Source: Escherichia coli
GTDB lineage: Bacteria; Pseudomonadota; Gammaproteobacteria; Enterobacterales; Enterobacteriaceae
Assembly: GCF_048403405.1 (NCBI RefSeq)
Contig: NZ_CP183129.1
Strand: one strand, 5' to 3'
DNA length: 64,000 nucleotides
The translations under genes and the position numbers were made by a program. A model generated the notes under the pieces. It did no database searches. It was not told the origin of the DNA and saw only the letters and a list, made by a program, of their open reading frames with translations. Of this stretch, positions 31,952 to 37,295 are shown in pieces (positions within the stretch are counted from its first letter, which is position 1; each line of letters opens with the position of its first letter).

Positions 31952-32497
<546 letters not shown>

Positions 32498-32569: not shown

Positions 32570-32791
<222 letters not shown>

Positions 32792-32816
32792 GCCGTTAAC
32801 GTTTTTAACTTTTTAA

Positions 32817-33200
<384 letters not shown>

Positions 33201-33210
33201 GCCAGTTGAA

Positions 33211-33240
33211 AGAGGGAGCTAGTCTCCCTCTTTTCGTTTC
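33211..33240 (+). terminator. Intrinsic terminator after rplT
   Basis: agagggag-ctagt-ctccctct hairpin followed by tttcgttt. Confidence 0.7.
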
Positions 33241-33322
33241 AACGCCATCAAAACATTGACTTTTATCGCCGTAGCCTTTTCAATAAAGGTCTTTTGAAAA
33301 GTACCAAAAGGTAACGCAAGCA

Positions 33323-33367
33323 ATGAATGCTGCTATTTTCCGCTTCTTTTTTTACTTTAGCACCTGA
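33323..33367 (+). CDS. pheM: pheST attenuator leader peptide (14 aa, 5 Phe)
   Basis: atg aat gct gct att ttc cgc ttc ttt ttt tac ttt agc acc tga = [14 protein letters not shown]; not in the ORF track (too short). Confidence 0.85.
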
Positions 33368-33413
33368 CTCCAGGAGGCTAGCGCGTGAGAAGAGAAACGG
33401 AAAACAGCGCCTG

Positions 33414-33440
33414 AAAGCCTCCCAGTGGAGGCTTTTTTTG
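33414..33440 (+). terminator. pheST attenuator terminator
   Basis: aaagcctccc-agtg-ggaggcttt hairpin followed by ttttttt, between pheM and pheS. Confidence 0.75.
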
Positions 33441-33463
33441 TATGCGCGTTTTGAAAAAATTAA

Positions 33464-34489
<1,026 letters not shown>

Positions 34490-34500
34490 GGCAGGAATAG

Positions 34501-36891
<2,391 letters not shown>

Positions 36892-36895
36892 ACCT

Positions 36896-37195
36896 ATGGC
36901 GCTTACAAAAGCTGAAATGTCAGAATATCTGTTTGATAAGCTTGGGCTTAGCAAGCGGGATGCCAAAGAACTGGTTGAACTGTTTTTCGAAGAGATCCGT
37001 CGCGCTCTGGAAAACGGCGAACAGGTGAAACTCTCTGGTTTTGGTAACTTCGATCTGCGTGATAAGAATCAACGCCCGGGACGTAACCCGAAAACGGGCG
37101 AGGATATTCCCATTACAGCACGGCGCGTGGTGACCTTCAGACCCGGGCAGAAGTTAAAAAGCCGGGTCGAAAACGCTTCGCCCAAAGACGAGTAA
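36896..37195 (+). CDS. ihfA: Integration host factor alpha subunit
   Basis: 99-aa [55 protein letters not shown]... Confidence 0.95.
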
Positions 37196-37208
37196 TCTGA
37201 TCTAACTA

Positions 37209-37239
37209 AAAAGGCCGCTCTGCGGCCTTTTTTCTTTTC
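37209..37239 (+). terminator. Intrinsic terminator after ihfA
   Basis: aaggccgctctgcggcctt hairpin followed by ttttcttttc. Confidence 0.75.
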
Positions 37240-37295
37240 ACTGTCGAAGAGTCACCGTAAAATCAACGCCATGACACTTCAGCAGAACGGATACC

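Follow-up and report, generated by a model that had tools for sequence, protein, structure and literature searches.

The element immediately upstream of pheS in the window (the whole 64-kb stretch of DNA that was analysed) is almost certainly the E. coli pheM leader with its attenuator, by which transcription of the pheMST operon is controlled in the classical, ribosome-mediated manner. The preliminary description had read this region as a transcription attenuator operating through Phe codons, and that reading was supported by RNA folds, conservation among relatives, a match to Rfam RF01859, the RefSeq annotation of pheM and published attenuation in vivo. The element has been known since 1983-84 and is annotated in both RefSeq and Rfam. 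Its value here is that of a control, as a textbook attenuator that is missed by size-filtered ORF tracks and was recognised from sequence alone. The additions are descriptive: a switch predicted in 74 leaders, synonymous Phe-codon changes that are compensated, and a repeat polymorphism in the 5' UTR of pheS.

The full RF01859 (Phe_leader) model, positions 1-125 of 125, matched 33317-33441 on the + strand with 74.4 bits (E = 9.2e-11), compared with a gathering score of 55. Many RefSeq E. coli chromosomes carry the DNA from 33150 to 33560 with 100% identity, and of 5426 complete E. coli genomes 5425 contain this stretch. The identical RefSeq records annotate rplT, a 'Phe leader region', pheM, pheS, pheT and ihfA, and on the basis of this identity and of the annotated features the window was recognised as containing the E. 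coli thrS-infC-rpmI-rplT-pheMST-ihfA region. ORFs and RefSeq identity placed pheS, encoding the phenylalanine--tRNA ligase alpha subunit, at 33506-34489 (+) and pheT, encoding the phenylalanine--tRNA ligase beta subunit, at 34504-36891 (+). The pheS start in RefSeq is the ATG at 33506, which is preceded by GAGG, while the ORF lister picks the first in-frame ATG at 33494; the latter was rejected as the start, since the annotated RefSeq start corresponds to 33506.

The leader ORF, pheM, occupies 33323-33367 (+), from an ATG at 33323 to a TGA at 33365-33367, and consists of 14 codons and a stop: ATG AAT GCT GCT ATT TTC CGC TTC TTT TTT TAC TTT AGC ACC TGA. RefSeq annotates it as 'pheST operon leader peptide PheM' (WP_001386830.1); the peptide matches, and its position between rplT and pheS is the same as in RefSeq. 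The five Phe codons (TTC at 33338, TTC at 33344, TTT at 33347, TTT at 33350 and TTT at 33356) fall within seven consecutive codons, 33338-33358. Among the 934 ATG-started ORFs of 8-40 codons counted on both strands of the 64-kb window, none but pheM had 5 Phe in 7 codons, and one other ORF reached 4 Phe. A Shine-Dalgarno-like block, AAGGTAA, is located at 33308-33314 (+) with its GG 11 nt 5' of the pheM ATG, and was at least 90% conserved in an alignment of 79 upstream regions. Judged from its sequence, this short ORF could be translated and, with its cluster of codons for the cognate amino acid, Phe, has the form expected of an attenuator leader.

An intrinsic terminator, the attenuator proper, was found at 33413-33439 (+) by terminator scan and by folding. 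In its 10-bp stem, 33413-33422 pairs with 33427-33436 around a CAGU loop; the stem is made up of a 6-bp GCCUCC:GGAGGC core (33417-33422 with 33427-33432), three A:U pairs and one G:U pair. The U7 tract after the stem corresponds to seven T at 33433-33439, and 33440 is a G. Folded on its own, the terminator had a free energy of -14.9 kcal/mol, and the gap from the terminator to pheS (33506) is 66 nt. All 74 distinct relatives carried a terminator hairpin of 8-11 bp and -12.6 to -16.8 kcal/mol, followed by a U run. The parts of the arrangement had been described correctly beforehand: the 14-codon ORF with 5 Phe codons is exactly as claimed, the GC-rich hairpin plus U7 had been placed at 33414-33440, within one base of the true position at each end, and the downstream genes are indeed pheS and pheT. 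The absence of pheM from the ORF track had been ascribed to its size, and the mechanical ORF list, with a floor of 20 aa, does omit it.

Upstream of the leader, rplT ends with a stop codon at 33198-33200 (+), which is followed at 33205-33243 (+) by a hairpin with a T-rich tail (core AGAGGGAG:CUCCCUCU), found by folding. The segment 33200-33245 folded with -17.0 kcal/mol, and the block was highly conserved in the 79 upstream alignments. This hairpin likely serves as the terminator of the rpmI-rplT unit, and would separate that unit from the pheM promoter. It was absent from the output of the terminator scan over 32800-33700, although folding confirmed it; the scan probably missed it because the stem extension uses up the T tract. 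A candidate sigma-70 promoter of pheMST was located at 33256-33284 (+), with a -35 hexamer TTGACT (33256-33261), a 17-nt spacer and a -10 hexamer TTCAAT (33279-33284). The hexamers were approximately 70-88% conserved in 79 distinct Enterobacterales upstream regions, and from sequence and conservation we propose this as the pheMST promoter, with transcription predicted to start near 33291. A consensus promoter scan of 32800-33700 reported no promoter; it misses TTCAAT because it demands that the second base of the -10 hexamer be A.

The leader folded with -58.3 kcal/mol, compared with -36.7 ± 3.5 kcal/mol for dinucleotide shuffles (z = -6.2). The unconstrained fold consisted of a helix between 33332-33355 and 33385-33408, two hairpins capping it (33357-33381) and then the terminator, an architecture that matches the Rfam consensus structure. 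The 5' strand of this anti-antiterminator (protector) helix, segment 1 (33332-33355, +), is within the pheM coding region and lies over the Phe codons. Its 3' strand, segment 2 (33385-33408, +), forms 22 bp with segment 1 in three runs. The apical hairpins of the terminating conformation (33357-33381, +) pair 33357-33361 with 33377-33381 and 33363-33366 with 33371-33374, and are also part of the Rfam consensus structure. The helix boundaries given are those predicted by the folds made here.

The folds also predicted an antiterminator, made by a 5' strand at 33373-33386 (+) and a 3' strand at 33407-33422 (+), whose pairing requires that a ribosome footprint cover the Phe codons. With no ribosome stalled, the apical hairpins occupied most of the 5' strand in the folds. 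The 3' strand overlaps the end of segment 2 and the entire GC core of the terminator 5' arm. At 33373-33379 the RNA repeats the terminator 3' arm (33427-33433) exactly, as GGAGGCU, and this copy competes with it for the same 5' arm.

Nascent RNA was folded with its end at 33422 or 33426, before the terminator 3' arm. When the RNA was free or the ribosome was at the stop codon, the anti-antiterminator helix formed and the terminator 5' arm was left unpaired. When the A site was on Phe 8, 9, 10 or 12, the fold switched to the antiterminator, with pairs 33373-33379/33416-33422, 33380-33381/33411-33412 and 33383-33386/33407-33410. The stand-alone energies were -17.0 kcal/mol for the antiterminator region (33369-33426) and -36.5 kcal/mol for the anti-antiterminator helix. 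In the equilibrium fold of the finished leader, masked with a ribosome footprint of 28 nt, the terminator persisted at every ribosome position; this is not counter-evidence, since the choice is made co-transcriptionally, and the predicted switch is visible only when folding is treated in that way. The antiterminator (about -17 kcal/mol) exceeds the terminator (about -15 kcal/mol) in stability by a small margin, so the mechanism would depend on kinetics. In these models the antiterminator and the terminator exclude each other, and a ribosome stalled on the Phe codons is predicted to be required for the antiterminator to form.

Conservation was assessed in 80 loci from one-genome-per-species bacterial assemblies, which were retrieved by PheS protein alone, so that the leader had no part in their selection. 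Of these, 78 were testable, and two (L028 and L075) with too little upstream DNA were left out. The genera include Escherichia, Salmonella, Citrobacter, Enterobacter, Kosakonia, Cedecea, Erwinia, Pantoea, Rahnella, Yersinia, Hafnia, Edwardsiella, Dickeya, Pectobacterium and Lonsdalea. The leader peptide was present in every testable Enterobacterales locus (78/78), always in a frame of 13-15 codons, and the run F-R-F-F-F-Y/D-F was found in 77 of the 78. The remaining leader, from Yersinia aldovae (L069:1106-1153; MTHTVTFRFSFYFSA), contains FRFSFYF, in which one Phe is replaced by Ser (TTC TCT TTT). It was the sole Phe-to-Ser case among the 78 loci, and its Rfam score was still 75.3 bits. A strict F.FFF.F pattern was rejected as a presence test, having missed this leader, which is present. 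The RF01859 score was above the gathering threshold in all 20 orthologous loci tested.

The 74 distinct leaders were folded independently and without an alignment, as nascent RNA. Placing the ribosome on Phe 10 led to sequestration of 5 nt or more of the terminator 5' arm in 74 of 74 leaders; the same was seen in 8 of 74 when the RNA was free, and in 6 of 74 when the ribosome was at the stop codon. The sequestering segment sits 7-17 nt past the leader stop in each of the 74. The preliminary description had looked to RNA folding for mutually exclusive structures and to relatives for conservation of the Phe run; folding yielded an antiterminator and a terminator whose alternation depends on ribosome position, and the run proved to be nearly universal among these loci; neither outcome refuted the attenuator reading.

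The anti-antiterminator helix was paired in 93.4% of alignment cells from the 74 relatives, as opposed to 54-67% when the partners were slid by 1-3 columns. Double-sided changes occurred at 5 pairs of this helix (24 cells), a level reached by none of 500 shuffles. At one Phe codon third position, a change from UUU to UUC was matched by a change from A to G in segment 2 (UA 33, UG 33, CG 8). On the MAFFT alignment, the antiterminator was paired in 83% of cells, compared with 43-58% when slid, and its double-sided changes were not above those of shuffles on this alignment, in which the register is shifted near the terminator. The weaker count is partly due to this shift. The antiterminator and the terminator were judged by the per-sequence folds, since MAFFT misaligns the terminator region, and the terminator arms give no covariation evidence because they are nearly invariant. 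Covariation supports the anti-antiterminator helix, and its support for the antiterminator is weaker and confounded by the alignment.

In the proposed mechanism, transcription would start from the promoter between rplT and pheM, near 33291, and a ribosome would translate pheM while RNA polymerase was still transcribing the leader. If Phe-tRNA-Phe were plentiful, the ribosome would pass the five Phe codons and reach the stop at 33365, where its footprint would cover part of the antiterminator 5' strand; once it was released, segment 1 (33332-33355) would re-pair with segment 2 (33385-33408). Whether the ribosome was still at the stop or already released, the hairpin at 33413-33436 would form and polymerase would halt in the U7 tract before pheS. 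If Phe-tRNA-Phe were scarce, the ribosome would stall at 33338-33358 and keep segment 1 single-stranded, which would dissolve the anti-antiterminator helix together with its apical hairpins. The strand 33373-33386 would then be free to pair with 33407-33422 once the latter was transcribed, the terminator 5' arm would be sequestered, polymerase would read through, and PheRS output would rise. What was obtained here in silico is the ORF, the terminator, the prediction of three helices that exclude one another and form according to ribosome position, and the conservation of the whole.

A simpler account would hold that the hairpin and U7 are merely a constitutive or leaky terminator, acting for example against read-through from rplT, and that the Phe-rich ORF is a by-product without any sensing of tRNA-Phe. 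The U-rich strand of a long helix must read as Phe codons in one frame, and the terminator is always kept in the equilibrium fold, as this account would have it. It does not sit well, however, with a pheM frame, start, stop and length that are kept in 78 of 78 loci along with a conserved Shine-Dalgarno block, with Phe-codon changes that are synonymous and compensated in the partner strand, or with a conserved antiterminator that arises only with a ribosome on the Phe codons. Attenuation in vivo has already been published, and a response of read-through to Phe-tRNA-Phe and to the pheM start codon is in the literature. We regard a constitutive terminator as very improbable. Still less credence can be given to the idea that a 56-aa ORF overlapping pheM in the +1 frame (33327-33497) is the real gene and the 14-codon ORF incidental. 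The longer ORF is reported by the mechanical ORF list, has an ATG start and has first 14 residues that recur in relatives, but the recurrence of its N-terminus mirrors the conservation of the pheM DNA. Of the 78 relatives, 19 lack it and the others have it at lengths between 1 and 80 codons; it also extends through the terminator and is unannotated in RefSeq.

Control by a trans-acting factor that binds the leader RNA was also weighed, either as a T-box-like contact with uncharged tRNA-Phe or as autoregulation by PheRS like that of ThrRS at thrS. Such regulation is common for aminoacyl-tRNA synthetase genes, and thrS lies within the same window. The T-box covariance model, however, gave no match at its gathering score in the whole 64-kb window and none at 33190-33520 even at E ≤ 1, and a permissive Rfam scan of 33190-33520 found no credible family besides Phe_leader. 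A weak reverse-strand Phe_leader match and matches to mir-5444 were discarded, as they reflect the long near-palindromic helix. What the leader does have is a translatable ORF with Phe codons and three helices arranged as in a classical attenuator, and PMC1262725 lists pheST among the classical attenuators of gamma-proteobacteria, in contrast to the T-boxes of Firmicutes. The chance that a trans-acting factor accounts for the leader appears negligible, and ribosome-mediated attenuation is the preferred reading.

For the response in vivo, the polymerase pause in pheM and the cleavage by RNase III, we rely on the literature. Attenuation control of the pheMST operon in vivo is attributed to Springer et al. 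1983 (J Mol Biol 171:263) where that work is cited in PMC9291695, and attenuation of pheMST is also attributed to Trudel et al. 1984 (BBA 782:10) where it is cited in PMC5371410. In PMC5371410, alternative structures of pheM are described, together with RNase III cuts inside the terminating structure that were seen in vitro and by RNA-seq. PMC9291695 gives the pause in pheM a half-life of 25 s in vitro and reports that it is not stabilised by NusA, unlike the pauses in leuL, pheL and thrL1.

Peptide, terminator and flanking genes (rplT and pheS) all agree with those of the known E. coli pheMST attenuator, to which the DNA is identical over the 33150-33560 interval given above. Only the downstream spacer differs, the window being without a repeat of approximately 145 nt, and the attenuator is unchanged. 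The pheL/pheA attenuator resembles it in having a Phe-rich short leader ORF and an intrinsic terminator, in belonging to the same family (RF01859), and in having a long anti-antiterminator helix with a U-rich coding strand and an A/G-rich partner, a comparison in which pheM leaders were the ones analysed here. The pheL leader contains more Phe codons than pheM, and the gene under its control, pheA, is a biosynthetic one. Unlike pheL, pheM controls tRNA synthetase genes and is located within the thrS-infC-rpmI-rplT-pheMST-ihfA cluster. The trpL, hisL, leuL, thrL and ilvL leaders follow the same logic, in that translation of regulatory codons chooses between antiterminator and terminator, but differ from pheM in regulatory codon and target. 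In contrast to the classical attenuators, the antiterminator 5' strand of pheM is predicted to be in the apical part of the helix formed by segments 1 and 2, distinct from segment 2. The T-boxes of Firmicute pheS genes perform the same task, the charging of tRNA-Phe setting PheRS synthesis, and also switch between terminator and antiterminator, but they bind uncharged tRNA directly and without a leader peptide, and no T-box signal was seen in the pheM leader.

The repeat of approximately 145 nt is located between the pheM attenuator and pheS in at least 4782 of the 5426 complete E. coli genomes (88%), with filled sites exemplified by L082:420-564 and L003:~1310-1455. The window carries the empty junction, at 33458/33459, in common with 642 of the 5426 genomes (12%). 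Terminal inverted repeats of 17 nt (AGCCTGTCTCATCAGGC / GCCTGATGGGATAGGCT) bound the element, whose core is ERIC-like; it is dispersed, with a median of 5 copies per E. coli genome. It lies 3' of the attenuator and leaves the attenuator unaltered. Among the Enterobacterales relatives, the distance from terminator to pheS varied from 39 to 365 nt, and ERIC-like sequences were found in long spacers of Citrobacter (L005, L013, L015 and L029) and Yersinia (L062 and L069), with 2-5 mismatches to the ERIC1R/ERIC2 core. The motifs used were those of the standard ERIC1R and ERIC2 primers. Small palindromic repeats seem to have inserted more than once in the spacer between attenuator and pheS.

It is conceivable, but unlikely, that the leader has a second role, either through a terminated RNA of approximately 150 nt acting in trans or through a PheM peptide that modulates stalling, or that the repeat alters the stability or translation of read-through pheST mRNA. 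A second role of the leader comes into consideration through the FRFFFYFS core, whose conservation is stricter than the counting of Phe codons needs, and through the cleavage by RNase III. The conservation of the peptide can be fully accounted for by the need of the two strands of the anti-antiterminator helix to pair.

Several minor observations were made elsewhere in the window. The infC gene (31955-32497, +) begins with ATT at 31955-31957, as assigned by homology to the RefSeq annotation ('...ggaggaataaggtATTaaaggc...'), and because of this start the ORF list gives only a truncated infC ORF of 144 aa, from a GTG at 32063. The AUU start of infC is a well-known oddity. Gene coordinates upstream of rplT are shifted by one base relative to the RefSeq strain CFSAN061763 (L001), which points to a 1-nt indel in the rpmI-rplT intergenic region (32791-32844) between CFSAN061763 and the window. 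Between ihfA and btuC, STnc540 (RF02082) was matched at 37137-37295 (+) with 67.4 bits against a gathering score of 38, in a stretch that includes a strong terminator-like hairpin (AAAAAGGCCGC...GCGGCCUUUUUU). The RprA small RNA (Rfam RF00034) was matched over its full length at 61968-62075 on the - strand, with 118.5 bits against a gathering score of 70.
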